Source: Minisyncoccota bacterium
GTDB lineage: Bacteria; Patescibacteriota; Minisyncoccia; Phycocordibacterales; PALSA-1337
Assembly: GCA_041662725.1 (NCBI GenBank)
Contig: JBAZRX010000001.1
Span: forward strand, 85-64,084
Direction of reading: 5' to 3'
DNA: 64,000 bases
The notes below the pieces were generated by a model that did no database searches, was not told the origin of the DNA, and saw nothing but the letters and a program-made list of their open reading frames with translations. This document shows, in pieces, positions 4,001 to 60,797 of the stretch. Both the position numbers and the translations under genes were made by a program. The first letter of the stretch is position 1, and each line of letters starts with the position of its first letter.

Positions 4001-6004
4001 TCTTCTGACCCTATCACGTTCAATAGTTATTAAGACATCCTTATTAGGATCTCCTAGAGAGATGTTTACAGGAACATTCTCGCCAGGAGAAAATTCTCTA
4101 TCCTGTGCTTTCAACGTAACAACTCCAGAACTGTTCTCGGTGTAATAAGGCACATTCTCTTTTGTAATCCATAAAGATAATTTCTTTTCATAAATATTAC
4201 CTTGTCGATCAGAAACTTTAAGATACAAACTATGACTACCTGTTTTCTGAGGAACGTACACTACTACCGCTTCACCTTTGTCATTTGTAGTAACAGAAAA
4301 GTTTGGTAGGTTTTCCTCAACAAAATGATAATTATAATAACCTTGTGAATTTAAAAGATTTTTATCATCTCTTAACCACTCTCCACGAATTGGAAACACA
4401 GAAATATTTACATTAGAAACTGGAGCATCAGAGTGAGATAGAAGCGTTAGTGGTATTGATATTGATTGCTCAGCTTTTGCATAATATTCGTAGTTACCAG
4501 CACGGATACTATATTCATTTCCTCGTAGCAAAATATTTTTACTAGCTCTAACAGGATTACCACTCTGATCTTGATAACTCGCTTCCACAGAAATAATAGA
4601 AAAGGCATCTCTAGGAAGCATATACGTACCAAAAACAATTTCAGCTTCACCTTTATCATTCAATTCAATCTCTTCATTTTTGATTTCATTTTTTCCGTAA
4701 TAATACCCGCTATAACCATATTTTTTGTAATATTCTAAATTCTCCTCTGTGTAATATTGATTCGCAGAATATTTGACTGAATATTTAACTTTTCCACCAG
4801 AGATTGCTTGACCAGAAAAATACTTACCAGAAAAATGAAGTGAGACGTTTTCTCCTTGTAAAAATTCATCTTTTTCTACATTAATGTCTAAATTATATTC
4901 AGGTTTTCGATAATATTCGACATTAAAATCTGTAACTGTACGTAAATACCATTCCCTATCAGATGTTTCGCCTATATTTACTGATATTTGGTAGGTTCCA
5001 GGACGTGCAGTATTTTCAAGACTGTATTCACCAGATATTGTCCCATTAGCAGAAATTGGATATTTCTTCTCAAATAACAGATTCGTCGAATTGTAATCCT
5101 TATACACCTTTACTGTAACCAATCCAGTAGGAATACTATACTCCGCATTGTCATCATTTCGAATAATTGCTTTAAAATAAACTTTATCACCGGGAGTATA
5201 GAGAGGTCGATCTGTAAAAAGTAAGTACTTTGTATTTACCTTGGAAGTACTGAAGTTTTGGTAATTATAATAATCACTCGGTAGATTCAATATTATCAAC
5301 GTCTGACCTTCTGATGAATTTACAAACCCAACATCGGCATTTACTGATTGTAATGTTTTTGCAATCCCGTCTGAATCTATTGGCGAACTAGAAAGATAAG
5401 TAGGTTTATCTTTGAGACTAAATATTTCAATGCTTCCAGAATTAACTTTTTTCCCTGTAACTATGTTTTGAGTCCATAAAATAATTTCCTTATTACCTTC
5501 TCTGGCCATAGTACCGATCGATGTACGTACCACAGCTGAAAATGTTTGTTCACCATCTGAACTGTATGCCCGCAAAAGCCAAAAACCAACTCCTTCTATC
5601 GGTAACAATGTTTTTTCTCCTATCCCCTTAGTATCAATTGTCACAATTTTTTTCAACTTAGAAACATCCGGAACATTCGCTATGTACTTTTCACTATTAT
5701 CAACCTTATATGTCAAAAAATTCAAAAATTCATCTTTTGAAAAATTATAAACATCTATTTTTACATCTCGTTTAACATCATCATAAGCAGAAATCTTTAT
5801 TGATGGCTCTTGATGTGTCCCCCATACAATCAATCTGCGACTTGAATATTGACCTTCAACAGCATCAACAATACCAATTTTTCTATAAGTATTATCTGCT
5901 GAAACATAATGACTAGAATTTAACAACACCACTATTGCAGTTGTAATCAATAAAACCACCGCAATAACTTTTGAAAGTCTATTCAAATTCACATTTTTGG
6001 GCAT
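1019..6004 (-). CDS. alpha-2-macroglobulin family protein (thioester-containing), membrane-anchored, with internal Hint/BIL domain
   Basis: 1661 aa. N-terminal hydrophobic anchor. 'YPYGCVEQTT' thioester CxEQ motif. 'VLPDNLTTW' A2M-domain motif. Size matches bacterial A2M (ECAM/YfhM, ~1650 aa). Repeated Ig-like beta-rich segments. Confidence 0.85.
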   Translation of the reverse strand: MPKNVNLNRLSKVIAVVLLITTAIVVLLNSSHYVSADNTYRKIGIVDAVEGQYSSRRLIVWGTHQEPSIKISAYDDVKRDVKIDVYNFSKDEFLNFLTYKVDNSEKYIANVPDVSKLKKIVTIDTKGIGEKTLLPIEGVGFWLLRAYSSDGEQTFSAVVRTSIGTMAREGNKEIILWTQNIVTGKKVNSGSIEIFSLKDKPTYLSSSPIDSDGIAKTLQSVNADVGFVNSSEGQTLIILNLPSDYYNYQNFSTSKVNTKYLLFTDRPLYTPGDKVYFKAIIRNDDNAEYSIPTGLVTVKVYKDYNSTNLLFEKKYPISANGTISGEYSLENTARPGTYQISVNIGETSDREWYLRTVTDFNVEYYRKPEYNLDINVEKDEFLQGENVSLHFSGKYFSGQAISGGKVKYSVKYSANQYYTEENLEYYKKYGYSGYYYGKNEIKNEEIELNDKGEAEIVFGTYMLPRDAFSIISVEASYQDQSGNPVRASKNILLRGNEYSIRAGNYEYYAKAEQSISIPLTLLSHSDAPVSNVNISVFPIRGEWLRDDKNLLNSQGYYNYHFVEENLPNFSVTTNDKGEAVVVYVPQKTGSHSLYLKVSDRQGNIYEKKLSLWITKENVPYYTENSSGVVTLKAQDREFSPGENVPVNISLGDPNKDVLITIERDRVRRYFVTSVPGYTSTIYVPTFNTDLPNVFVSASTFTTKGNHLFNSSSKAVTLSKSSKEINVSIIPGAKKYAPGETVELRIKTTDSSGLPISSEVAVWAVDKSLYELISEQRAKIIDVFWGKRYNSTSYKNSFEGITSSGGAEKGCFVGETLILTPNGLKQIKDIKVGDQVLTRRSEIDPTLVKATVKKVHSIITDGYLILNGNIKVTPEHRVWVNNSWKDVGNIQIGDLLIDKNNKEVKVNSIEWQAGKTAVYNLTVENKATYFAGNIYVHNQKGDGGSVRDSFADVAYWNPQIQTDANGNAVVRFVLPDNLTTWLVQGLAVTYDTKVGENATDLLVTKSVIVRPILPNILRIGDDVTISTLSHNFTGSSKQFENALSFMGGSVIGNKTVSLIIDNNSFVETLWKLNVLKPGIAEVKTSLQSNNNPEEKDIVSVKIPVQEFGFNERTSFVGEGNVIYDTIRFPDTNASSSKANLYLSASLFGTLPPAIDYLLQYPYGCVEQTTSRFVPAVIIKENESIFRKIIGDKDLQGFMKTGIDRLSILKDGRGGWGWWYGEVNPFITGYVIEYLKRAEKIGAVVPRDLYESTKTRFENELPKISDPITRIGYIYTLSLLDSPLGKEEIKNFGTSTPDIIALGLLSNIRNGFTDRSTNGYDLLQETAYEENGKKYWNAGTWKFFGSREASTALALRALLEAGASEEMTIGAARYLVSERKSDYWHNTFATSQTIDALLEFTKKYSKGSSTSYKVLIGEKMIDSGTLQGVFDTKTISIDPNLLTHGARLRIEPLNDNQIYSTFVFDQFRTGKDSASKNNGLDITRTYSSSFGIGDVVDINIRVLNIPPESRYLVIEDELPAGLVPINKSFENERSSSAYNPSSYYYWGGDREYTKNGIIASFSYVHNSTMDLTYQARVVSRGTFNVPPARASLMYEPEINGRTGTDVVTITGQKSKSVFNQGDQTGVSDMQTKYRVMGYIILLMLIIAGITHGYDKYKKISSRV
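2507..2518 (-). other. thioester motif CVEQ of A2M
   Basis: Codons for C-V-E-Q; Cys at 2516..2518 on the minus strand. Confidence 0.8.
3194..3577 (-). other. Hint (intein-like / bacterial intein-like) domain embedded in the A2M ORF (residues 810-937)
   Basis: Begins 'CFVGETLILTPNGLK' (Hint block A with Cys1) and ends 'NIYVHN' (block G, terminal Asn). 128 aa with no endonuclease domain. +1 residue is Gln. Confidence 0.65.
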
Positions 6005-6094
6005 AAAAATAATTTATCGTCTAGTAATATAGGCATTATACAACAAAGAAACAAGAAGAGTTTTGCGAATCAGAGATAAATTCCCTGTGGTAAC

Positions 6095-6598
6095 TTACCT
6101 CACCAACGATAAATCACCGTTAACAATTACAGGTTTCATTCCTATAATTTCTTGTTTATAAGTAAGTTCTGATGATATTGAATTTAATATGTATATTTTC
6201 TTCCTGAGATAAAAAGCAACACCAATCTCAATCAAAGTGTTACCACCAACATATCCGCTAATACCTCTTTTATCGGGATTGATAACCAAGATCCCATCAC
6301 ACCAATCAATCTTCTCGTAATGATCTCTGATAGCCCCTTCTTTGAGATCCCAGATCTTGTGTCCTATCGGAAATCCGTCAATACCGCCATTCTGTTCGAT
6401 ATATTGACCAAAATAGACTTTTTTACCACCACCAAATTCTGGCGGAACTTCTAAAGCAAGTTCAGGTATTTTCACTTCAAAACCACGTTTGACTAACTCA
6501 TCCCTAGCTTGTTCCATTTCTTTATAAAAACCAATACTGCCACAAATTGTTATTTTCATAATTTTATTTATTAGATTATCTTTAATTCTTTTAACCAA
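6095..6598 (-). CDS. nucleoside 2-deoxyribosyltransferase-like / DNPH1(Rcl)-like protein
   Basis: 167 aa. 'MKITICGS...' start like NDT-family proteins. 'YVGGNTLIEIGVAFYLRKKIYIL' matches the catalytic-Glu block (GTxxExGxAxxxGKP). True start may be the internal Met (~6559). Overlaps the NUDIX gene by 28 nt. Confidence 0.5.
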   Translation of the reverse strand: MVKRIKDNLINKIMKITICGSIGFYKEMEQARDELVKRGFEVKIPELALEVPPEFGGGKKVYFGQYIEQNGGIDGFPIGHKIWDLKEGAIRDHYEKIDWCDGILVINPDKRGISGYVGGNTLIEIGVAFYLRKKIYILNSISSELTYKQEIIGMKPVIVNGDLSLVR

Positions 6599-7038
6599 TC
6601 ATACCAGACCGGCTCCAAACCTGGCGACTCTTCCCACTCATTTTGCTTGATATCTCCACTAAGATATCTTTCGGTTTTATCTGCAAGTAATTTCAAATCA
6701 TCAGATGAATAAAATCCCGCTTGCTTCGTTTCATCTTCGCTCCTTTTTACCTCTCCGCTAGTTTCAACTTTATATATTTTCCAATAATGCCAACTACCAC
6801 CTTCCCGACGACACGGATTTTCTTTTCGACCTTCAATCAATAATTCAATATTTTTTGAATCTAATCCAACTTCTTCTTTGAGCTCACGTTCTGCGGAATG
6901 TTCAAAGGAACTATCTAGATCGAGATGACCAGCTGGAGGTGCAAAACCAAATGGCGGTCTTTTTCTTTCGATCAGCAGTAACTTCCCATCTTTCCAGACC
7001 AACATCCCGACGCTCTTGTTGTCACATTTATTTGTCAT
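6571..7038 (-). CDS. NUDIX hydrolase
   Basis: 155 aa. Nudix box 'GHLDLDSSFEHSAERELKEEVGL' (GX5EX7REUXEEXGU). Confidence 0.8.
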   Translation of the reverse strand: MTNKCDNKSVGMLVWKDGKLLLIERKRPPFGFAPPAGHLDLDSSFEHSAERELKEEVGLDSKNIELLIEGRKENPCRREGGSWHYWKIYKVETSGEVKRSEDETKQAGFYSSDDLKLLADKTERYLSGDIKQNEWEESPGLEPVWYDWLKELKII

Positions 7039-7178
7039 GTTATTTTAATTTCTTTACAAATTCTACTGGTGAAGAAATAATTTCCCTGAAAAGAATGTAA
7101 CTGCACAATAGCTGTTTTCATGATTGATAATTATACTACATCGATATAATAAATAACCCTAGACTTATGGCCTTTTTA

Positions 7179-14524: not shown

Positions 14525-15292
14525 TCACATTATTTCTAAAAAAAGCGGTAAATGATCGGAGACTTCGTGATTTAATACTTTAAAATCAACTTCTTTTAAA
14601 TTCTTTGATAAAAATATGTAATCAGCAAACTTATCTTTTTTATTATAAAACGAGCTTCTAGTAGATTGAATATCATATTTTTTAACCAAATTTAACATTC
14701 CAGTTGATTCCAAGATTTTTACACTTTCAGTATCTGGCAGAAGATTAAAATCCCCACAGAGAACGTACTCCCCTTTAAGAGAATTCGTAAACTTAACAAT
14801 ATTCTTTGATTGATTTATTCTGTCATCACAATCAGTCTTCCCTTTTCCATTCCATAATCCATGAAAATTTATAATAGTTAGTGGTTCTTGATCTATCATA
14901 ACCGTAACATACTGAATATTTCTAGCGTGATTCCCAATATCTCCATTTGGAATATGTCCTTTCTCTAGATAAACAAATAATTCTCCCTCAGCTATTACAT
15001 TTAATTTCTTACTTACCATCATTAATAATCCATAATTGTTCAAAAAATGAGGACGAAAATATGCTGTATGTTCAGAGAGCGTATTTGATATATCCTGCAT
15101 ACCACTAGTCATGATCCTACTTTGATCAATTGCTAAGCCACCTGCACTATGACCATTATAATCGTCATATGGCGCTGACCATATTTCCTGAAGACAAAAT
15201 ATATCTACACTATCTTTGTGCTCATTAAAAAAATTAATTAGGCTATCTTTTCCAGCCCTACCACCCCATGTGTTTAGAGTAATTATTTTCAT
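14525..15292 (-). CDS. endonuclease/exonuclease/phosphatase (EEP) family protein
   Basis: 255 aa. 'IITLNTWGG', 'FCLQEIW', 'GDFNLLPDT', 'SDHLPLFLEI' EEP catalytic blocks. Confidence 0.75.
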   Translation of the reverse strand: MKIITLNTWGGRAGKDSLINFFNEHKDSVDIFCLQEIWSAPYDDYNGHSAGGLAIDQSRIMTSGMQDISNTLSEHTAYFRPHFLNNYGLLMMVSKKLNVIAEGELFVYLEKGHIPNGDIGNHARNIQYVTVMIDQEPLTIINFHGLWNGKGKTDCDDRINQSKNIVKFTNSLKGEYVLCGDFNLLPDTESVKILESTGMLNLVKKYDIQSTRSSFYNKKDKFADYIFLSKNLKEVDFKVLNHEVSDHLPLFLEIM

Positions 15293-17320: not shown

Positions 17321-18436
17321 GTGCGTTTTTACTTCTATTGTCGTATAATCACCCTTATCATGCCTTCCCCTACTTCTTGGAAACTCTACAATCAAAATGA
17401 AGAGGCTTGGAATTCAATGCTCAATGATTGTGCTAACGCTAAAGAAAGTATTGTCTTGGAACAATTCATCTTCTTTAATGATGAATTCGGTCAGAAATTG
17501 ATAGATGTATGTGTAGAAAGAGCCGCCGCCGGTGTCAAAGTAAGATTCCTATGGGATGCCGCTGGTAGTTTTACTTTTTGGGGATCAAATGTTGCTAAAG
17601 ATTTGCAGACAAAAGGGATTGAACTTCTTTTTTGGAAAACACTTATCCCTGGTTACTTTAAGATACCGAACATGCGTTCATGGTATCTACGCAATCATAG
17701 ACGTACATTAGTTATAGATGAAAAAATCGGTTACACAGGCAGTATCTGTGTATATGATAGTTTCAAAAATTGGCGTGACACCAATGTACGACTTGAAGGT
17801 CCTGTTGTATCAGAAATGTCTAATGCTTTTGAACGTATGTGGGCTCGTGCTAATTCAATCAAATTACCTAAGAAAAAATCATCTAGTGATAGAGAATTTA
17901 GATACATTACAAACTATCCTGCCCCTGGCCGAAGACATATATATGCGACCATAATAAAAGCTATACGTGGAGCTCGCAAAAATGTCTACATTACTACACC
18001 GTATTTTGTTCCAACACATCGTCTAATCAAGGCTATCAAATCAACCACCAAAAAGGGTGTTGATGTTCGCCTTATTATCCCAGAAAAATCAGACTATTAC
18101 GCTGTTGATCTAGGAGCACGAGCTTTTTTCAAAACACTTTTACAATCAGGTGTACGGATCTTTCTTTATTCTGAAAATATGATACACAGCAAATCTATAG
18201 TAGTTGACGGCACGTGGGCTACGGTTGGTTCTATGAATATGGACAGTGCCAGTATGCTTTATAATTTTGAAGCTAATATAGTAACTACTAATAATGCTTT
18301 TACACAGGAATTAACTAATCATTTTATAAATGATCTTAAAGAAACCAAAGAAGTATCTCTAACTGAATGGCAAAATAGGTTTTTCCTAGAAAAAATACCA
18401 GAAATATTGATAAGATTGGTAAAGAAATTTTTATAA
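17321..18436 (+). CDS. cls: cardiolipin synthase / phospholipase D family protein
   Basis: Two HKD motifs: 'NHRRTLVIDEKIGYTGSICV' and 'HSKSIVVDGTWATVGSMNMD'. True start may be the internal 'MPSPTSW' (~17360). Confidence 0.8.
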   Translation: MRFYFYCRIITLIMPSPTSWKLYNQNEEAWNSMLNDCANAKESIVLEQFIFFNDEFGQKLIDVCVERAAAGVKVRFLWDAAGSFTFWGSNVAKDLQTKGIELLFWKTLIPGYFKIPNMRSWYLRNHRRTLVIDEKIGYTGSICVYDSFKNWRDTNVRLEGPVVSEMSNAFERMWARANSIKLPKKKSSSDREFRYITNYPAPGRRHIYATIIKAIRGARKNVYITTPYFVPTHRLIKAIKSTTKKGVDVRLIIPEKSDYYAVDLGARAFFKTLLQSGVRIFLYSENMIHSKSIVVDGTWATVGSMNMDSASMLYNFEANIVTTNNAFTQELTNHFINDLKETKEVSLTEWQNRFFLEKIPEILIRLVKKFL

Positions 18437-20795: not shown

Positions 20796-22178
20796 TTAAA
20801 TTTTATAAGTTACACCTCTTTCTGGCACTATAGCCTTTACTCCTAGTTCATCGTTAATTCTCTGTGCTAAATGCATAGAAACTCCTGGTTCCCCCATTAC
20901 AACAAACACTTGTTTCAATTTTTCTGTACCTGTAGAAACAAATTCTACTAAATGATCACTATCTTTGTGCGCAGAGTAACCATAAAGAGTTTCTATACAT
21001 GCTTTTACTTTTACAACCTCCTTATTAATATGTACTTTCTTGGCTCCATCAGCTAATTGGCGACCTAAGGAACCAACAGTTTGATAACCAACTAACAAAA
21101 TAGTGTTTTTTGGATCAGGTAAATAATGCTTCTCATGACTGATCACCCGACCACCAACCGACATCCCTGAGCCAGCTAAAATAATTTTAGCGCCTTTCAA
21201 ATGATCTATAACCCGCGATTCATCTTGGGACATAGTATATTCAAGTTGTGGAAATGCAAAGATATCGTCACCATGCCTTATTTGTTCCTTAACATAATCA
21301 TTGAATAAATCATTACCCTCTTTATAAATCTGTGTAGCTTTGATCGCCAAAGGAGAATCAACAAATACTGGGACTTTTGGAATTATTTTACGTTCAACCA
21401 TATTATTTAATTCATAAAGCAGAACTTGTGTACGGTCCATTGAGAATGCAGGAATAACGAGTGTACCACCACGAGCAATAGTATCCTTTATAACTTTTTC
21501 AAATTTATTTGTGCGTTCTTCTATATTTTCATGATTACGATCACCGTAAACACTTTCCATGATCAAATAATCTATATCCCCAACATCTTCAGTGTTTCTT
21601 AGTAAAGGTGCTGGTGAATTACCAAGATCGCCAGTGAATAGGACTTTTAGAGGCACAGCCTCTGTTTGACCTCTTGAAACAACCTCAACCATTGCTGAAC
21701 CTAATATATGTCCAGCATCTTTGAAAGTAATTGAGAGATCTTCAGATACTTTGAAAAGTTCGTGATATTTTATCGTCTTCCACAAAGGAAAAATTGCTTG
21801 AACATCTTCAATGTTATACAAAGGTTCTAACCCTTCTTGTACCGCCTCCATTTCTAAAATACGAACAGCGTCATCTAAAATAATTTCCGCCAAAGCTTTT
21901 GTTTCGGGTGTTGAATAAATAGGTCCTTTATAACCTTCTTTCACTAATTTTGGAATACGACCAATATGATCCAAATGAGCATGAGTAATGAAAAGTGCAT
22001 CAATAGAAGAAAGATCATAAGAAAATGCTACACGATTTTCCTCCATAACTACCCTATCGCCCTGCACAAGCCCACAATCAACAAGAACTTTCGTACCTGT
22101 TGGTGATTCAAAAAGAAAATTAGCACCTGTAACAGTACCGACCCCAGAATAAAATGTTACTTTAGAATTATTTTCCAT
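20796..22178 (-). CDS. MBL-fold beta-CASP ribonuclease (RNase J / CPSF-like)
   Basis: 460 aa. 'HAHLDHIG' HxHxDH motif, beta-CASP region, C-terminal RNA-metabolising domain. Confidence 0.7.
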   Translation of the reverse strand: MENNSKVTFYSGVGTVTGANFLFESPTGTKVLVDCGLVQGDRVVMEENRVAFSYDLSSIDALFITHAHLDHIGRIPKLVKEGYKGPIYSTPETKALAEIILDDAVRILEMEAVQEGLEPLYNIEDVQAIFPLWKTIKYHELFKVSEDLSITFKDAGHILGSAMVEVVSRGQTEAVPLKVLFTGDLGNSPAPLLRNTEDVGDIDYLIMESVYGDRNHENIEERTNKFEKVIKDTIARGGTLVIPAFSMDRTQVLLYELNNMVERKIIPKVPVFVDSPLAIKATQIYKEGNDLFNDYVKEQIRHGDDIFAFPQLEYTMSQDESRVIDHLKGAKIILAGSGMSVGGRVISHEKHYLPDPKNTILLVGYQTVGSLGRQLADGAKKVHINKEVVKVKACIETLYGYSAHKDSDHLVEFVSTGTEKLKQVFVVMGEPGVSMHLAQRINDELGVKAIVPERGVTYKI

Positions 22179-52869: not shown

Positions 52870-53580
52870 TTATTTAGGAATAATTCCTGCCGCTTTTTCC
52901 GCCGCGACGATTTGTGCCGGTGTAAATGGAACGTTGGTATAATTCCAAATGATACCAAACTTCTGTTCGATTTCGACTTTGTTTTCGGCGTCGGTTTTCA
53001 CACGTTCATTCTTCGGACGAGGTTTAGTTCGACCACATTTCTTGCAGAACTTACCCATAGCTCCAGTGCCAGCAACTCCACCGTGAATCATTCCTCGCTC
53101 ATACTTATGCCTACATTTTGTGGCACAGGCATTGCAGGTTAACCACTCACATTCTAAACAGCTGATCATTTGAGCTTGGCAGTGCTTACAAAATCCGAGA
53201 GTGATGACAATTGACTTTACACCGTCAACATCGGAGGTATTCAAGAAAATCGGACTGCATCCTCCAAAGTAGCAGGAATCTCGCAAACCGCAAATTACAC
53301 TCTTGTCGCCGTTGGTTGTTCCTTTGAGAGTAAGACGAACACCACCCACCATAACTGTATCCTCAATAGTTACGTTGTTTTTAACTTGTGTTCGTGGTTT
53401 GACCGTCGATCCAAAATACAAGTTAATTTTGCAGTAATTGCCATCATCCTCTCGATTTCCGTAGATGAACTTGTCGCCTTTTTTCAATATTGGGATGAGA
53501 TGAGTAAACAGCTCGTGCTCATCTTTTTCAACGGGTACCAATGTTAACGTGGCTACTTTATCGTTACGAATAACTTTCAT
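52870..53580 (-). CDS. hypothetical Cys-rich (multi zinc-ribbon) protein
   Basis: 236 aa. 'CKHCQAQMISCLECEWLTCNACATKC' and 'CKKCGRTKP' clusters; 3' quarter is noticeably GC-richer. Confidence 0.4.
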   Translation of the reverse strand: MKVIRNDKVATLTLVPVEKDEHELFTHLIPILKKGDKFIYGNREDDGNYCKINLYFGSTVKPRTQVKNNVTIEDTVMVGGVRLTLKGTTNGDKSVICGLRDSCYFGGCSPIFLNTSDVDGVKSIVITLGFCKHCQAQMISCLECEWLTCNACATKCRHKYERGMIHGGVAGTGAMGKFCKKCGRTKPRPKNERVKTDAENKVEIEQKFGIIWNYTNVPFTPAQIVAAEKAAGIIPK

Positions 53581-54456: not shown

Positions 54457-54699
54457 ATGTCAAAAATCTGTCAAATAACAAAAAGAGGTTCAATTGTTGG
54501 TGGTCGTTACTCCAACCGTACTCGTGCTACACAATTCAATCCTTGTGGAGCCATTCGCAAATATCCAAATCTTCAAAAGAAGCGAATTTACGTTCCTGAA
54601 TTAAAGAAAACTGTAATTCTAAATATTTCTACTAGAGCACTTCGTACTATTGAGAAAAACGGTGCTTTCAAAACACTAAAGAAAGCGGGGTTAATATAA
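54457..54699 (+). CDS. rpmB: 50S ribosomal protein L28
   Basis: 'MSKICQITKRGSIVGGRYSNRTRATQFNP...' L28 consensus (listed ORF begins 48 nt upstream). Confidence 0.8.
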   Translation: MSKICQITKRGSIVGGRYSNRTRATQFNPCGAIRKYPNLQKKRIYVPELKKTVILNISTRALRTIEKNGAFKTLKKAGLI

Positions 54700-55668
54700 C
54701 ACGTCCGACCTCCCAGAAATATCGGCGACGCTGACTCCAATACCATCTGAAGTTATTTTAATAGCTCCCCTCTCTTTTAAGTTAAACCTATTTTCATCAA
54801 GAACATAACCTAATGGATCTTTAATTTCCTTTTTCTTTAAAGATGCTGTTTTTGAGTCTTTAACCGATTTGGTTGAGGTATTTCTAATCAATTTTGAATA
54901 AATCAAATACTTTGGTCGTAATTTATCCATTAATACTGGAGATATGTTCACCGGTAAAGCACTATGTGAAACGATTAGAATATCCGTAGTAATCTCATTC
55001 GTTTTGGTTGTTTCGTCAATAATCGGCGATGTTGAAGCAATGAATTTCTGCACCTTATTTGAAGCGTTTCCGAGAAATGTTACTGAGGTGGCGCCTAGAG
55101 AAATGCTAAAGAGTATCTCTGGAGCACTAGCTTTGGAATATGCAAACCTATCTTGATGTACAGGAAAAAATACATGTAAATCAGTTTTATTATCTAAATG
55201 AATATTGTCTCCAGCTATTAATTCTTGAGTTTTGATAACTTCACGCTGTAAAGTATCAGTAAATGTGGAAAATATCTGATCTGATGAACTAGCAATTCCG
55301 AGAACTTCTAAATTAATTCCTGAAATATAAGCTTCGCTCACATCGTATCTCTCAATAATATCAATAAGACCAGAAATATTTTTACCTTCAGTATTAGTAG
55401 CGATAATCTTATCAATGCGCCGTGAATAAAAAGGTAGAATATCTGTAAGCTTACGAACAATTTCTGAATTTGATCCACCGTCAATCAAAACCCTTTTATC
55501 TTCTGGGGTACGAATAAACATGGAGCGTCCGCTTGAAAGTACAAAAACATATATTTCTAGAATTGGTGGTCGTGCTTCAATCTTCCAAATATACGCACCA
55601 AGACTACTCGCTACAGCGGTAGTTGCAGCAACAACAAGAAGTGGTTTAGATATACTTTTAATACTCAT
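54691..55668 (-). CDS. ComEC C-terminal-like MBL-fold protein (metal-binding motif degenerate), membrane-anchored
   Basis: 'LEIYVFVLSSGRSMFIRTPEDKRVLIDGG' matches the ComEC lactamase_B block, but the HxHxDH position reads 'ATNTEGKNISG'. N-terminal TM. Confidence 0.5.
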   Translation of the reverse strand: MSIKSISKPLLVVAATTAVASSLGAYIWKIEARPPILEIYVFVLSSGRSMFIRTPEDKRVLIDGGSNSEIVRKLTDILPFYSRRIDKIIATNTEGKNISGLIDIIERYDVSEAYISGINLEVLGIASSSDQIFSTFTDTLQREVIKTQELIAGDNIHLDNKTDLHVFFPVHQDRFAYSKASAPEILFSISLGATSVTFLGNASNKVQKFIASTSPIIDETTKTNEITTDILIVSHSALPVNISPVLMDKLRPKYLIYSKLIRNTSTKSVKDSKTASLKKKEIKDPLGYVLDENRFNLKERGAIKITSDGIGVSVADISGRSDVLY

Positions 55669-55685
55669 ACCGCAAGTATACTCAC

Positions 55686-55738
55686 GCGAGATAAAATCCT
55701 GATAAAGAAACGATAAAGATTTGATAAAGATTTGATAG
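55686..55738. promoter_or_regulatory. ~50-nt repeat (copy 1) in the divergent region between the MBL gene and sod
   Basis: 'gagataaaatcctgataaagaaacgataaagatttgataaagatttgatag', near-identical to 57746..57798. Confidence 0.7.
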
Positions 55739-55823
55739 TCGCTTCGCTCGTCAGAATAAAGATGATTCAGTTTTCTTAAATTAGACGTATAATAAGCAAA
55801 TACTAATAATCAATAAATAAGCC

Positions 55824-56435
55824 ATGAAAACATTTGAGACTAAAACATATAAAATACCAGTTCTAAAAGGCCTTTCACAAAAAAGTATAGACGAACACTT
55901 GAAGCTTTATGCTGGTTATGTGAAAAATTCAAATCTCGTTTTAGAAAAAATAGAAGAATTGAAAAAAGAACCAGAGAAAAATGCATATGCCTTAAGCGAA
56001 ATTAGCCGTAGATTCGGCTTCGAATATAACGGCATGCGTAATCATGAAATTTACTTCGCTTCACTTGAGGGTGGTGCAAATGCAATAAAAGAAAAAAGTC
56101 CTCTCTATCAGGCTATTACTGAAAACTGGGGTTCATTTGAAGCTTGGCTAAGTGAGTTTAAAGCTATTGCCATGACTAGAGGTATTGGCTGGGCAATGCT
56201 TTATTATGATTACAAAAACTCACGACTACTTAATGCGTGGGTTGATGAGCATCATATTGGTCAACTAAATGGCTGTGAACTGATTCTTGGACTAGATATG
56301 TGGGAACATTCCTTTGTCTTAGACTACTTACCTTCAGGAAAGAAAAATTATATTGAAGATTTCTTTGTAAATCTCAATTGGCGCGTAGTAGAAGAGAATT
56401 TTCTGGTAAAAAACAATATCGCAAATAATATATAA
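55824..56435 (+). CDS. Fe/Mn-family superoxide dismutase (divergent)
   Basis: 203 aa. C-terminal 'DMWEHSFVLDY...NLNWRVVEENF' matches the D-x-W-E-H-[STA]-[FY] signature; N-terminal 'LPVLKGL...EH...YV.N.N' helix-hairpin. 3' end overlaps the comEC 3' end by ~88 nt (convergent). Confidence 0.65.
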   Translation: MKTFETKTYKIPVLKGLSQKSIDEHLKLYAGYVKNSNLVLEKIEELKKEPEKNAYALSEISRRFGFEYNGMRNHEIYFASLEGGANAIKEKSPLYQAITENWGSFEAWLSEFKAIAMTRGIGWAMLYYDYKNSRLLNAWVDEHHIGQLNGCELILGLDMWEHSFVLDYLPSGKKNYIEDFFVNLNWRVVEENFLVKNNIANNI

Positions 56436-57742
56436 AAACCAACTACCCACCAACCAGAAAAAACTGGTATATTAACAGCCGCAAAAGGCAATTGCGCAAA
56501 TTTTTGTACCATAAATAACTCATATGAAAGTAAAAAATGTGTAATCCAACCAAAAACTTGAGCAAAAGGTAAATAAACCATACCAATTAATCCTGTAATA
56601 AAAACAAAAAACATCGTAACAGGAATAAAAGGTAAAACTAAAATATTTACAACTACTCCAATAATAGAAAGCTGGCCCATTGTATATAAAATATATGGCG
56701 AAACAAATATTTGTGTAGCAATCGTTGCCGCCACTATGCCACGAATACCAAATTTTTCTGGAATAAATATTAAATATTTTTCTACAGGTGAAGCCAGAAC
56801 AATCAAACCTAAAGTAGCTAAAAACGATAATTGAAATGATGGATCATAAAAAAGAATCATTGGATTTTGAATAAGCATAATGAGGCCAGCAAAAATCAAT
56901 GCACGAGTAACGTTGTAATCCCGACGAATCAAATCTGCCGAAAGAGCCACGCCAGCCATAAAACAAGAACGAATCACTGTGGCTCCACCACCAACCATTA
57001 TTCCAAATGCGGCTATACCTAGGCCTCCTATAGCTATTCCCCAAATACGTGGCAGAAACAATAAAATCCTTCTCATAGCATCACCAACAATAGTGATGTT
57101 ATAACCAGAAAGTACTACAATATGAATTAGTCCTACTGTACGAAAATCATTCAGTAAATCTTTACCTAAAGCAGCTTTCTCTCCCACCACAAGTCCTGAA
57201 GCTAAAGCCGCATGTGGTTCACCTAAAGTTTTTTCTAAACTATTTACAAATTTTCTTTTAAGAAAATACAACCAATAATTAATATTTGATTTCTGTCCAC
57301 CAGCTGATAAATTGGGATCTAAAATTCCAACTGTCGCACTTTTCATTTCAAAATAAATATCATTTTTAGCTAAATACCCTTTATAATTGAAAGATCTACC
57401 ATCACTACTATCAAAATTAATTGGTTGTAATAATTTTCCAGTAAACGAAATGCGATCATTAAAAATAAACTTCGGATAAAGTTTTGTCTTCATACGAATA
57501 AGAAAGTTTGCACCACATGATTTAGAAGTGCTTGCAATACTCAAAGATTCAACCGAAACAACCAGAACCTGTCCTGTTTCTTTGCGTTCTGGTTCAGAAT
57601 TAACAACACCAATACCATTTACAACTTGTTTTACACAAGAATCAACAGATGGTGGCTCTATATCAAAAGATTGCCATACACGAAATACAGCCGCCGCAAT
57701 AAAAATACTCCAAAAGATAAAAATCCCTCGCTTCATGAGCAA
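56348..57742 (-). CDS. ComEC/Rec2 DNA-uptake channel protein (DUF4131 + Competence domain only; MBL domain absent)
   Basis: 464 aa. 'LGEPHAALASGLVVGEKAALGKDLLNDFRTVGLIHIVVLSGYNITIV' Competence-domain consensus; polytopic. Confidence 0.7.
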   Translation of the reverse strand: MLMKRGIFIFWSIFIAAAVFRVWQSFDIEPPSVDSCVKQVVNGIGVVNSEPERKETGQVLVVSVESLSIASTSKSCGANFLIRMKTKLYPKFIFNDRISFTGKLLQPINFDSSDGRSFNYKGYLAKNDIYFEMKSATVGILDPNLSAGGQKSNINYWLYFLKRKFVNSLEKTLGEPHAALASGLVVGEKAALGKDLLNDFRTVGLIHIVVLSGYNITIVGDAMRRILLFLPRIWGIAIGGLGIAAFGIMVGGGATVIRSCFMAGVALSADLIRRDYNVTRALIFAGLIMLIQNPMILFYDPSFQLSFLATLGLIVLASPVEKYLIFIPEKFGIRGIVAATIATQIFVSPYILYTMGQLSIIGVVVNILVLPFIPVTMFFVFITGLIGMVYLPFAQVFGWITHFLLSYELFMVQKFAQLPFAAVNIPVFSGWWVVGFYILFAILFFTRKFSSTTRQLRFTKKSSI

Positions 57743-57745
57743 TCA

Positions 57746-57798
57746 TTTTACTCAGAAGAGATAAATTCCTGATAAAGAAGTAATAAAGATTTGATAAA
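57746..57798. promoter_or_regulatory. ~50-nt repeat (copy 2) immediately upstream of comEC
   Basis: 'gagataaattcctgataaagaagtaataaagatttgataaagattatagag'. Confidence 0.7.
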
Positions 57799-57800
57799 GA

Positions 57801-60797
57801 TTATAGAGTAGGTGTAATTTCAGGAGTAGGTTCTAAAACCGGTTCTGGAGTAGGTGTTAAAAGAGGTGTGAGTTCTGGTGTTGGAGTAAGAGTTACTTCA
57901 GGAGTAATCGTAGGTTCAGTTGGAGTAGCTGTTGGTGTTGGAAAAACTATTGGTTCTGGAGTTACGATAGGTTCTGTAGAAGTAGCGATGAACTCAGTTG
58001 AAGTGGCTACAGAAGGTGTTGAAGTTGAGGTTGGAGTTACTGTTGGAACTGGAGTCGCTTCTGGCGTAGGCGTGGATATTGGTGAAGCAATTGAAGGTGT
58101 AGGAGTTGGAGTTAATGAAGTTAAAGAGATTGTACTACTAGCGTTAATTAATAATGCTTTAATTTGGTCTTCATTAAGACAGGTCTCCCCAACACACAAC
58201 ATATCTGTTTTCACCCTCGTAAACACCCCACTCACCGCGGTAATCGTATTCATCGCAAGGTTCCCTATTGATTTGATAAGATCAAGAACAGCAGTAGCGA
58301 TCTTTTCAATAAATGACTGTGAATTGATGTAATCTGTAGTACTGGCTGTAGTGGTAGAAACAATTAAACTCCAGTTTTCAAGGTTTAAGAGACGACTATT
58401 TAAAGAAAGTGTAGTACTTCCTACATTAGTGATGAAATCATCAATTTTAGTGTTTAAGCCAGAGAATGTCAGAGCTTGTTCTTCAGCTGTAGTACTGGCT
58501 AAAGCATCTAGATTAGCTCTTAGAGTGTTTAATGATCTATTAAAGCAAGTAACACTGTTAGAACAGATGTCTCCTAAGATGTTCAGATTACCTTCTTCAT
58601 CTATGTTGAGTATAGAATCTCCTTTTTGATTCTGTAGAAAGAGAGCTTGTGGTACAGCGTCACTTAATGCTTCAGTGAATCTGAAGTTGTTGGCAAAGAT
58701 TAAGTCACCTGTGTATGTATTATCTGCTCTAAAGCCTCCTATGACTCTTATATTACCTATGATGGTAGAAGTAGCTAATGGAGTGTTTATAGTTAGAGTA
58801 CCATCGGAGTTGATTTGGAAGACGGTGGTGGTGGCAGAAGCTGTGGAGGTTGAAACAGCAAAGATTGGAGTTGTCTGGTTTGACGAACCTGCTACAGAGA
58901 GTTTGGTGTATGGAGAAGTGGTACCGATGCCGACGTTGCCTCTATCAAAAGTAAGAACATCAGGGTATGAAGTACCATTAGTCTGGTCAAATGTCCATCT
59001 AACAACACCTGCTGTAACAGATTGTTTAAGTTTCAAATTGTATGCCATATCTAATGTGTTATATCCCCACATTTGACTTACTATTTGATCACCACCATTT
59101 TTGGTATCAATATGAAGGTATGCTTGTGGTGAAGTTGTTCCAATACCAACTTTACTAGATGTAATTCTCATAACTTCACTATTGTTAGCATAAAAAGTTG
59201 GGAAATATCCTGAATGGAAAGAACCTATTCTTACCTCACCTGTTAAATTATTTCCGGTAATTCCACCAAATACAACACCGCTTGTTCCAGTCATTTTTAA
59301 TCCAATATCATCACTAGAATTTAATGGTTTTAAAGTAATTATAGGTAAGTCATCTGTAGATCCTTGAATAAACAACATGCCACTTTTTGTTCCTGTCCCT
59401 AAAGCAATAGGACCACCAAATGAACTTGTAGTTGTTCCTGCTGTGTAGATGGCGTAATTTTTTGTTGTACCCTTAGATAATTGAGGTATATAAACTCCGT
59501 AGTTATTCACAACAGTTCCACTACCTGTTGGATCAGCAGAGTAGGAACCATACATATTTGTTACTGTTCCATAATTAACCGATGGAACATTCACAAAACC
59601 ATACATTGTATCCATTGTTCCAGACGAACTGTAATTTGCTCCATTTTGAAAAGCAGCATAGTGTCCATAGTCAGCAACACCTCCGACAAATATTCTTCCA
59701 TCAAAAGAGTTATAAGAAATTGTACCGCTTCTGACTACATATGAACTATCAGAAAAAGCATGCCCATTTCCACTAACAGAATCATTAACTGATCTACTGA
59801 TTAGTATTTGTGAATCAACACTGTTATTATTTACTCCACTACCCACATGTAATATCGCTAGCGGATTCACTGTCCCAATCCCGACATTTCCAGCAGAAGT
59901 AATTGCCAAAGCCCTATAACTTGCATTTGTGGCTAAAGCATCAGAAGTAGTACCGATATAAAATTGACCGGAATTAGATTCTATAAACCAATGTTTTTGA
60001 TTAGTTGAAGCATCTGTATCAGAAAGTGTAATCTTTGGCGCTGTAGCTCCGGCAACTTGAAGGAGTGAAGTTGGGCTCGTCGTCCCCACCCCCACATTCC
60101 CTCCTCCTGTCGCTAAATAAGTAGAACCTGTTGTGGTTAGTTGAGTAGTTGAAGCATATCCAAGAGTTGTAAGTCCTGTCACATTCAAAGTAGATGAGAA
60201 AACACCTGTCGTTCCAGAGAATGAAGAGCTAGTGATAGCAGAACCAGAGATGTCACCTCCTGTAATAGATGGGCTAGTTATGGCACCATTGTTTGACACA
60301 GAAGAAACTGAAGCACCTGCGCTTCTAGCACTGCTATCTGCTTGTCTAGAGATACGGTCATATATAGCTTGCAGATCTGAAGAAGAGACATTCGCTGTTA
60401 GATTAGACTTAACAGTGTTTAACTGTGATTGAAGTGCTTGTACTTTAGCTTGAAGGTTAGCTAACAGTTGTTGATTATTTGATGTTGATTGTTGAGCAGG
60501 TGTTGTTTGTTCTACAGATGATGTTGGTGAATCTACATTATTGGTAGGATAATCGTTATCAAGTGTTTTGGTAGTTTGAACAGTATTATCTATATTACTG
60601 TTCTCTAATAACTCTGTTGGTGCTTCTGGTGTTTCTTCTACAGGACAAGTGAATACTAAACACTTAACACTATTCCAGATGCTAGCTAGAAGACTAAGGG
60701 GATTGTAATTAAAGGACGCTTCAGAGAATGAAGGTAGAACAAGAATAGCTACTATAAGTACGATTAAGATTCGCTTGCTGTAGGTGTTTAAATTCAT
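57801..60797 (-). CDS. giant secreted repeat protein with tail-fibre-like NVGIGTTSP repeats and PT-rich C-terminus
   Basis: 998 aa. Signal peptide. S/T/G-rich beta-repeat body with 'GNVGIGTVNPLAILHV', 'SKVGIGTTSPQAYLHI', 'GNVGIGTTSPYTKLSV'. C-terminal 'PTPTPSIASPISTPTPEATPVPTVTPTSTSTP...' tail. Confidence 0.7.
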   Translation of the reverse strand: MNLNTYSKRILIVLIVAILVLPSFSEASFNYNPLSLLASIWNSVKCLVFTCPVEETPEAPTELLENSNIDNTVQTTKTLDNDYPTNNVDSPTSSVEQTTPAQQSTSNNQQLLANLQAKVQALQSQLNTVKSNLTANVSSSDLQAIYDRISRQADSSARSAGASVSSVSNNGAITSPSITGGDISGSAITSSSFSGTTGVFSSTLNVTGLTTLGYASTTQLTTTGSTYLATGGGNVGVGTTSPTSLLQVAGATAPKITLSDTDASTNQKHWFIESNSGQFYIGTTSDALATNASYRALAITSAGNVGIGTVNPLAILHVGSGVNNNSVDSQILISRSVNDSVSGNGHAFSDSSYVVRSGTISYNSFDGRIFVGGVADYGHYAAFQNGANYSSSGTMDTMYGFVNVPSVNYGTVTNMYGSYSADPTGSGTVVNNYGVYIPQLSKGTTKNYAIYTAGTTTSSFGGPIALGTGTKSGMLFIQGSTDDLPIITLKPLNSSDDIGLKMTGTSGVVFGGITGNNLTGEVRIGSFHSGYFPTFYANNSEVMRITSSKVGIGTTSPQAYLHIDTKNGGDQIVSQMWGYNTLDMAYNLKLKQSVTAGVVRWTFDQTNGTSYPDVLTFDRGNVGIGTTSPYTKLSVAGSSNQTTPIFAVSTSTASATTTVFQINSDGTLTINTPLATSTIIGNIRVIGGFRADNTYTGDLIFANNFRFTEALSDAVPQALFLQNQKGDSILNIDEEGNLNILGDICSNSVTCFNRSLNTLRANLDALASTTAEEQALTFSGLNTKIDDFITNVGSTTLSLNSRLLNLENWSLIVSTTTASTTDYINSQSFIEKIATAVLDLIKSIGNLAMNTITAVSGVFTRVKTDMLCVGETCLNEDQIKALLINASSTISLTSLTPTPTPSIASPISTPTPEATPVPTVTPTSTSTPSVATSTEFIATSTEPIVTPEPIVFPTPTATPTEPTITPEVTLTPTPELTPLLTPTPEPVLEPTPEITPTL

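Follow-up and report, generated by a model that had tools for sequence, protein, structure and literature searches.

A two-gene ComEC with a predicted metal-less beta-lactamase-like subunit, and a shared four-box promoter that may mark a competence regulon in Patescibacteria

[quoted passage not shown] Natural competence has been demonstrated only in Saccharibacteria, its wider extent being stated as an open question (PMC10633639), and the ComEC uptake channel of CPR bacteria has been pictured as lacking a nuclease domain (PMC6744442). Here we analyzed a 64,000-nucleotide stretch of DNA from a Minisyncoccota bacterium (contig JBAZRX010000001.1 of assembly GCA_041662725.1; the whole 64-kb stretch is called the window below) in which the modules of ComEC are divided between a channel gene and a separate gene for a metallo-beta-lactamase (MBL)-like protein, both preceded by the same array of short repeats. 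The reading we favor, with a probability of roughly 0.72, is that these genes encode a two-subunit ComEC whose MBL subunit is metal-less, and that both are controlled by a shared four-box promoter belonging to a competence regulon.

The closest described systems are the full-length ComEC proteins of Moorella glycerini, Bacillus subtilis and Legionella pneumophila (PMC12455585; PDB 9ic4, 30bt), and the window contains the same three modules in the same chromosomal order. Unlike in the full-length proteins, two genes encode the modules, each with its own promoter and set apart by an antisense superoxide dismutase (SOD) gene, and the MBL module is anchored in the membrane independently and is without the metal ligands H598, D602, H603, H667 and D700. 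In the channel gene, Pfam recognized the Competence domain (PF03772; 8.6e-47, residues 182-445 of the open reading frame (ORF) 57736..56348) and the N-terminal OB fold DUF4131 (PF13567; 2.5e-10, 40.7 bits against a cut-off of 31.6). The ORF stops directly after the Competence domain and therefore lacks the C-terminal beta-lactamase-like domain that the three-domain form has; the equivalog model for full-length ComEC, TIGR00361, reached 74.7 bits, under its cut-off of 190. Both results agree with an earlier note on this DNA, which had read the ORF at 56348..57742 as DUF4131 plus Competence, ending before the MBL domain. All 120 closest ComEC homologues were likewise composed of DUF4131 and Competence only, without a lactamase domain. 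As the start codon, ATG at 57736 is more likely than the TTG at 57742, because transcription is predicted to start at about 57738 and the ATG is offset by 22 nt from the last box of the upstream array.

For the 325-aa MBL-like ORF, Pfam and NCBIfam returned nothing significant, and a family profile and structure prediction were needed to place it. An identical protein has been recorded from a metagenome-assembled genome (MAG) of a Candidatus Paceibacterota bacterium, and its family consists of standalone proteins of 285-367 aa. Searched as a single sequence against solved structures, it matched ComEC beta-lactamase-like domains best, with an E-value of 0.02, and the family profile matched residues 531-746 of ComEC 30bt_A at 2.3e-13 and 9ic4_A at 3e-12. 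[quoted passage not shown] Profile, model and Foldseek thus place the protein in the alpha-beta/beta-alpha MBL fold, nearest the ComEC domain, so that the description of 54691..55668 as a separate, membrane-anchored ORF with a ComEC-type MBL fold stands.

To assess the active site, catalytic residues were transferred from the characterized enzyme (PMC12455585) through the profile alignment and tallied over 120 members of the MBL-like family (Table 1). Residues 91-97 of the window protein, T-N-T-E-G-K-N, align with T-H598-P-D600-A-D602-H603 of ComEC, and the positions of H598, D602, H603, H667 and D700 are occupied by N92, K96, N97, F168 and N201. E94 stands at the D600 position, and H235, which corresponds to the DNA-contacting H725 of ComEC (PMC12455585), is the sole residue kept of the H-x-[HD]-x-D-H/H667/D700/H725 set. 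The HxHxDH motif, which the earlier note had read as T-N-T-E-G-K and taken as a sign of a probably catalytically dead protein, is indeed not intact when aligned with full-length ComEC. The catalytic columns are degenerate in 120/120 family members, with the essential residues replaced, and a complete metal site was found in none of them (0/120). An alignment of 42 members shows the degeneration of the motif to be characteristic of the family (consensus ATNTEGKNVSGL), with many invariant residues elsewhere, and by this measure the family is under strong purifying selection. Since no member retains a complete metal site, we predict that the MBL-like protein is a conserved pseudo-nuclease of ComEC origin; with its binuclear metal site lost, such a subunit could not be the metallo-nuclease that degrades the non-transported strand.

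The tally over 120 members also bears on whether the MBL-like subunit might still be a nuclease, acting through a rearranged site built from the acidic D600 position (D or E in 98/120), H235 (the H725 histidine is kept in 89/120) and the Asp found at D700 in some members (31/120), an arrangement that strong purifying selection would also suit. However, H598 is replaced by N or D in 102/120, H603 by N or D in 114/120, D602 by K or R in 111/120 and H667 by F in every member, and in the M. glycerini ComEC domain H598A, D602A, H603A and D700A each virtually abolish nuclease activity (PMC12455585). A rearranged nuclease is therefore highly improbable, and we retain the pseudo-nuclease assignment.

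A dead MBL module has a precedent in Streptococcus pneumoniae ComEC, whose MBL domain is inferred to be inactive and is still fused to the channel, while EndA degrades the other strand (PMC12455585). As in S. pneumoniae, the MBL module encoded in the window has been retained despite the loss of its catalytic metal ligands, and a retained dead module of this type points to a non-catalytic role, with strand degradation carried out by something else. Unlike in S. pneumoniae, the module is separate from the channel, and an EndA-type nuclease was not identified in the window or in the motif-linked regulon described below.

Table 1. Features of the window, residues tallied in the MBL-like family, and genes behind the four-box promoter
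Feature	Position or occurrence	Strand	Detail or basis
ComEC channel subunit, 462 aa	56348..57736	(-)	DUF4131/OB fold + Competence transmembrane domain; Pfam
Standalone ComEC-type MBL-fold subunit, 325 aa, predicted pseudo-nuclease	54691..55668	(-)	N-terminal helix anchor; profile, AlphaFold2, Foldseek
Codons T91-N-T-E-G-K-N97, remnant of H-x-[HD]-x-D-H metal-binding motif	55378..55398	(-)	alignment to ComEC
MBL-like box array	55690..55739	(-)	TTTATC at 55690-95, 55701-06, 55712-17, 55723-28; degenerate ACTATC at 55734-39; same register as 65-site consensus
MBL-like -10 hexamer TATACT	55675..55680	(-)	conserved T-A-n-n-n-T register of consensus; modal start-codon offset
ComEC box array	57760..57798	(-)	units at 57760-65, 57771-76, 57782-87 (TTTATT), 57793-98
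ComEC -10 hexamer TAAAAT	57745..57750	(-)	same register as consensus
Fe/Mn SOD, between the ComEC halves	55824..56435	(+)	Sod_Fe_C 2.5e-21, Sod_Fe_N 27.1 bits
998-aa ORF	57801-60797	(-)	
Cys-rich 236-aa ORF	52870-53580	(-)	
Exo_endo_phos protein	14525-15292	(-)	
PLD-like protein	17321-18436	(+)	
Beta-CASP/RNase J-like MBL	20796-22178	(-)	
Alpha-2-macroglobulin-like protein, 1661 aa	1019-6004	(-)	MG2, A2M_BRD, A2M, TED, bMG10
ComEC H598 in MBL-like family	120 members		N 82, D 20, H 2
ComEC D602 (general base) in MBL-like family	120 members		K 105, R 6
ComEC H603 in MBL-like family	120 members		N 93, D 21
ComEC H667 in MBL-like family	120 members		F 120
ComEC D700 in MBL-like family	120 members		N 61, D 31, S 18
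ComEC H725 in MBL-like family	120 members		H kept in 89
T2SSE ATPase, then T2SSF, LVIVD-repeat protein, pseudopilin	7/60 sites		T2SSE 2e-110
Ribosomal S6, then SSB and S18 (rpsF-ssb-rpsR)	5/60 sites		
ComM/YifB-type protein	5/60 sites		ChlI + Mg_chelatase + Mg_chelatase_C
ComEC	4/60 sites		
MBL-like protein	4/60 sites		
Type IV pilins, then S11 carboxypeptidase	4/60 sites		
DprA	1/60 sites		second gene of its unit
Secreted ~950-aa right-handed beta-helix + LCAT/DUF676-type serine esterase	7 sites, six genomes		L013, L016, L024, L049, L063, L066, L077
PemK-like genes	four-box promoter		L017, L044, L067, L070
PBECR1 toxin-like genes	four-box promoter		L055, L073
ORF6N genes	four-box promoter		L028, L079
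IS200 transposase	four-box promoter		L050
Integrase	four-box promoter		L041

We then considered how the two-gene arrangement is distributed. An exhaustive profile search at E<=1e-30 returned about 149 MBL-like clusters (50% identity), all of 396 aa or less and none fused to a channel. The most distant standalone members carry an intact site (D...T-H-P-H-x-D-H...D...H), and partly degenerate intermediates exist. Intact standalone MBL proteins number more than 7000, come from Patescibacteria wherever the organism is named and match Pfam Lactamase_B, and NCBI already labels some of them 'ComEC/Rec2 family competence protein'. The window protein shares their split architecture, N-terminal anchor and length class, and some of them lie at the same M50-S12-S7 locus; in contrast, they have kept the site and the Pfam match, whereas the window family has lost the site and has no Pfam match. 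A split ComEC as such occurs widely in Patescibacteria, together with intact MBL partners, and does not set this organism apart. A likely history is that a three-domain ComEC underwent fission at the loop before the last helix, that the genes then parted in this clade with SOD between them, and that catalysis was lost last; intact, partly degenerate and fully degenerate sites are all found among standalone members. The earlier note had called a non-nucleolytic split ComEC notable. This does not hold for the split, which is widespread, or for the dead MBL, which has a precedent, but it does hold for the two together as a family-wide state.

Loci with intact MBL genes also speak to the identity of the window protein. 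In locus L093 (3577-5858), an intact standalone MBL (P0447) abuts an MBL-less ComEC, the stop and start codons overlapping, and in L092 and L094 (5001-5891) an intact MBL lies where the window has its MBL-like gene, at the M50-S12-S7 locus, with an ADK-like gene (about 355 aa) after it. The absence of an adjoining ComEC in L092 and L094, together with the lost catalytic site of the window protein, would suit an alternative in which the 325-aa protein is a membrane protein with a new role that lies near ComEC through a conserved housekeeping neighborhood. We consider this distinctly unlikely, since in several genomes the MBL-like gene stands behind the promoter that also fronts ComEC and further competence genes, its product is closest among solved structures to the ComEC nuclease domain by the margin given above, ComEC and MBL genes abut in L093, and every MBL-less ComEC examined in this clade was accompanied by the MBL-like gene.

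Upstream of the two genes, positions 55679-55739 and 57749-57809 are 84% identical over 61 nt and, on the gene strand, consist of TTTATC units at 11-nt spacing, in keeping with the nearly identical sequences of about 50 nt with tandem units that had been described upstream of both genes. The MBL-like gene reads TTTATCT-cgcgtgag-TATACT-tgcggt-ATG, with the ATG (55668) at an offset of 20 nt and 6 nt past the -10 hexamer, and the ComEC gene reads TTTATCT-cttctgag-TAAAAT-gattgctc-ATG, with the ATG 8 nt past the hexamer; the ComEC array abuts the stop codon (57801-57803) of the 998-aa ORF upstream. Because each start codon coincides with the predicted transcription start, both mRNAs are predicted to be leaderless. 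A search of the window for TTTATC-N5-TTTATC with at most one mismatch gave seven matches against 1.5 expected, six of them at the two repeat sites. The 18-nt repeat core was found nowhere else in the window with three mismatches allowed, and the ribosomal, EF-Tu and EF-G operons of the window are without the element, which is present at these two sites only. A sigma-70 consensus scan called no -35/-10 pair at either site.

The same architecture was found in related genomes. In each of the four relatives examined, no direct repeat of the region is longer than the pair lying upstream of ComEC and the MBL-like gene, which is 77-88% identical and 11-nt phased, with a box sequence that varies by genome. 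Species-representative genomes scanned with the core common to the window, L002 and L004 yielded 81 stretches. Pattern matches in Smithella/Syntrophaceae were rejected, being inside a conserved 377-aa ORF, as was an Oscillibacter match that is a plain tandem repeat, and a few singleton stretches in other phyla were also excluded, leaving about 60 sites, which are spread over about 20 Patescibacteria MAGs and number at most nine in any one genome. In a 65-site matrix, the positions free of the search constraint revealed a fourth box (T62 T64 T60 A64 T58 C53 of 65), an extended -10 element from 9 nt past the last box (T-G-n-T58-A59-n-n-n-T59 of 65) and an A in 34/65 exactly where transcription is predicted to begin. 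Counted from there, the four boxes are at -60, -49, -38 and -27 (about -60 to -22), and a -35 hexamer is absent. The start codon falls 17-22 nt past the last box in 20/22 ComEC, MBL-like, T2SSE and ComM genes, again predicting leaderless mRNAs, and pilin, S6 and esterase genes have leaders instead. In L002 the MBL-like gene call at 6001-7077 (P0003, 358 aa) starts about 33 codons too early, with the four-box promoter and -10 element inside the called ORF; starting from the ATG at offset 20, the product is about 325 aa long, as in the window.

Box sequences have drifted between genomes while the layout was maintained, for example to TTGAGC/TTCATC or TTGAAC/TTTAAC in L005 and L007. Identity at free positions is 0.56 between sites of one genome and 0.41 between genomes, and this genome-specific box flavor fits one factor co-evolving with all its sites. 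A metagenome scan with the flavor specific to the window found only the MBL-gene site of a close relative. In L092-L094, the intact standalone MBL genes have no phased array upstream, and Rfam detected no RNA gene at the sites in ten loci whose motif sites are without a clear ORF.

Two further elements were observed near some of the arrays. Leader-bearing members (esterase, pilin and small coiled-coil genes) have a cATTATTA...TAATAATg palindrome directly past the predicted start, about 20-50 nt past the last box (L016, L048, L049, L077, L013, L029 and others), which is absent from the leaderless ComEC, MBL, ComM and T2SSE sites and might act as a second operator or form a stem-loop at the 5' end. 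In genome CAYQFS01, a TTGACA lying about 9 nt upstream of the array is conserved at all six sites (L014, L019, L022, L042, L066, L088); it was not seen in other genomes.

Genes downstream of the motif sites, identified with Pfam, fall into recurrent orthologous groups (Table 1). In relatives, 30/60 sites front competence-type units from seven families, giving a binomial P of 2.5e-23 if 5% of transcription units are assumed to be competence-type, a value to be read with the caveat that orthologous sites are not independent. It is thus in relatives that the element stands upstream of several DNA-uptake and DNA-processing units, including the T2SSE/T2SSF pilus operon, pilins, ComM, ssb and dprA; in the window it fronts only the two ComEC halves, and no comEA, dprA, pilin or regulator genes turned up in the Pfam-annotated parts. 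The co-regulation that the earlier note had suggested from the shared upstream sequence is supported by this distribution, as a predicted promoter element common to competence genes, and the repeat, dispersed as it is, is tied to competence genes.

The composition of the remaining sites has to be weighed here. The TTTATC array might instead be an all-purpose promoter module, strong or leaderless, or a promoter repeat that spreads within genomes, and not a competence operator: it also fronts the secreted esterase, toxin-like, ORF6N, IS200 transposase and integrase genes, and the sites of one genome are very alike even in their spacers (the free-position identities given above), as copies of one module would be. 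Further motif sites precede genes of unknown type. However, genomes that differ in box flavor have the same orthologous groups following the element, its position at orthologous genes is conserved despite the drifted box sequence, and competence-type families account for 50% of the sites. In addition, in the window, which offers an unbiased sample of 64 kb, the element is confined to the two ComEC halves and is missing from the ribosomal-protein, EF-Tu and EF-G operons. A generic or spreading module is therefore unlikely, and the four-box promoter is best read as marking a competence regulon with one putative activator. The integrase site in L041 has the standard TTTATC flavor, yet the ComEC and MBL sites of the same genome (L005) have TTGAGC/TTCATC.

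Comparison with known regulatory systems places this promoter in context. Competence cis-elements include the streptococcal cin-box recognized with ComX, the CRP-S sites of Haemophilus and Vibrio used with Sxy/TfoX, and the ComK boxes of B. subtilis, and the motif-linked gene set matches the core of the known competence regulons. As in these systems, one element fronts the uptake channel, a pilus or pseudopilus operon, ComM, ssb and dprA. Unlike in them, four direct repeats with an 11-bp period replace the -35 element, starts are predicted to be leaderless, and a large secreted esterase and toxin-like genes are included. In layout, the promoter is closer to those of PhoB and PhoP, regulators of the OmpR family, whose target promoters have direct repeats arranged in tandem with an 11-bp period, some 10 bp upstream of the -10 element. 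The four 11-bp direct repeats found here likewise end 9-10 nt upstream of the -10 element in place of a -35 hexamer, a resemblance that is architectural only; the box sequence is different, and the genes are those of competence rather than phosphate starvation. Literature searches on PhoP box sequences and on leaderless promoters in CPR bacteria gave nothing relevant, and no description of such a competence regulon or promoter in Patescibacteria was found.

Combining these results, we propose the following mechanism. The first gene would provide the OB fold and channel, and the second an extracytoplasmic beta-lactamase fold that its own N-terminal helix would hold at the membrane, the two proteins assembling like the domains of full-length ComEC. 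In ComEC the OB fold lies outside the membrane (PMC12455585), and the anchor helix would put the MBL fold on the same side. The dead subunit would most likely dock on the channel and handle DNA, through strand separation or guidance, or through phosphate binding by its conserved Lys, and another nuclease, or none, would dispose of the second strand. The two genes would be transcribed separately from promoters of the same type, with four 11-bp-phased TTTATC boxes in place of the -35 element, an extended -10 element and the start codon at the transcription start. Because the same promoter precedes pilus, ComM, ssb, DprA and esterase genes in relatives, the boxes most likely bind one activator, possibly as tandem head-to-tail protomers in the manner of OmpR/PhoB, which would switch on the DNA uptake and processing regulon as a unit. 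Through the secreted esterase, DNA uptake may be linked to a lytic function or to attack on a host. As for other nucleases, the window encodes Exo_endo_phos, PLD-like and beta-CASP/RNase J-like proteins (Table 1); the first or second could in principle replace the lost ComEC nuclease, and none of the three genes has the four-box promoter.

Several points weigh against this proposal. Sites in related genomes are statistically non-independent, and half of all sites precede genes without an obvious competence role. The regulon is inferred from relatives, since further members in the organism of the window were not retrieved, and no regulator was identified for the element. Moreover, L092 and L094 have no ComEC within 5 kb of their intact MBL, so that adjacency of ComEC and MBL genes is not universal.

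The neighborhood of the two genes is itself conserved. The order RecJ - RNase H - ComEC (DUF4131 + Competence) - SOD (antisense) - MBL-like - L28 (antisense) - M50 - S12 - S7 - EF-G is kept in the four relatives examined, down to 44% identity. An antisense SOD does separate the two ComEC genes, as had been noted, and it occupies the same position on the opposite strand at loci L001-L008, L042 and L065. Its 3' end overlaps that of ComEC by 88 nt in the window (56348-56435) and by 50 nt in L001, with no overlap in L003 and L005, and SOD is probably a conserved neighbor rather than a functional part of the ComEC system. Directly upstream of ComEC, at the place where relatives have RNase H, the window has the 998-aa ORF, which is Ser/Thr/Pro-rich with an N-terminal hydrophobic segment. 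Neither this ORF nor the nearby Cys-rich 236-aa ORF had a Pfam or NCBIfam match, and a kinship of the 998-aa protein with the beta-helix/LCAT proteins of the regulon was rejected, the proteins being unrelated. Elsewhere in the window, a 1661-aa alpha-2-macroglobulin-like protein contains a HINT/PT-HINT, intein-like insertion at about aa 810-937.

Taken together, these results amend the picture of CPR ComEC as lacking a nuclease domain (PMC6744442), in that a gene of its own encodes the domain, which this clade has kept as a conserved predicted pseudo-enzyme. The protein part is a variant of something known, because the split is common in Patescibacteria and a dead ComEC MBL has a precedent, and the promoter is the more valuable result. 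A dead nuclease subunit raises the question of what degrades the second strand, and a non-catalytic DNA-handling subunit, if confirmed, would imply a different fate for the non-transported strand. With the promoter, the competence gene set can be predicted directly from sequence, and members without annotation, the secreted esterase among them, are covered too. The promoter could also serve as bait for the regulator and as a candidate native regulated promoter for genetic tools. It is possible, at what we judge to be somewhat less than even odds, that it defines an undescribed competence regulon, perhaps one to 'attack and take up DNA', that extends across a large group of Patescibacteria with a co-evolving activator and a non-catalytic two-subunit ComEC. 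The promoter thereby offers a testable, sequence-level handle on competence in this uncultured radiation.

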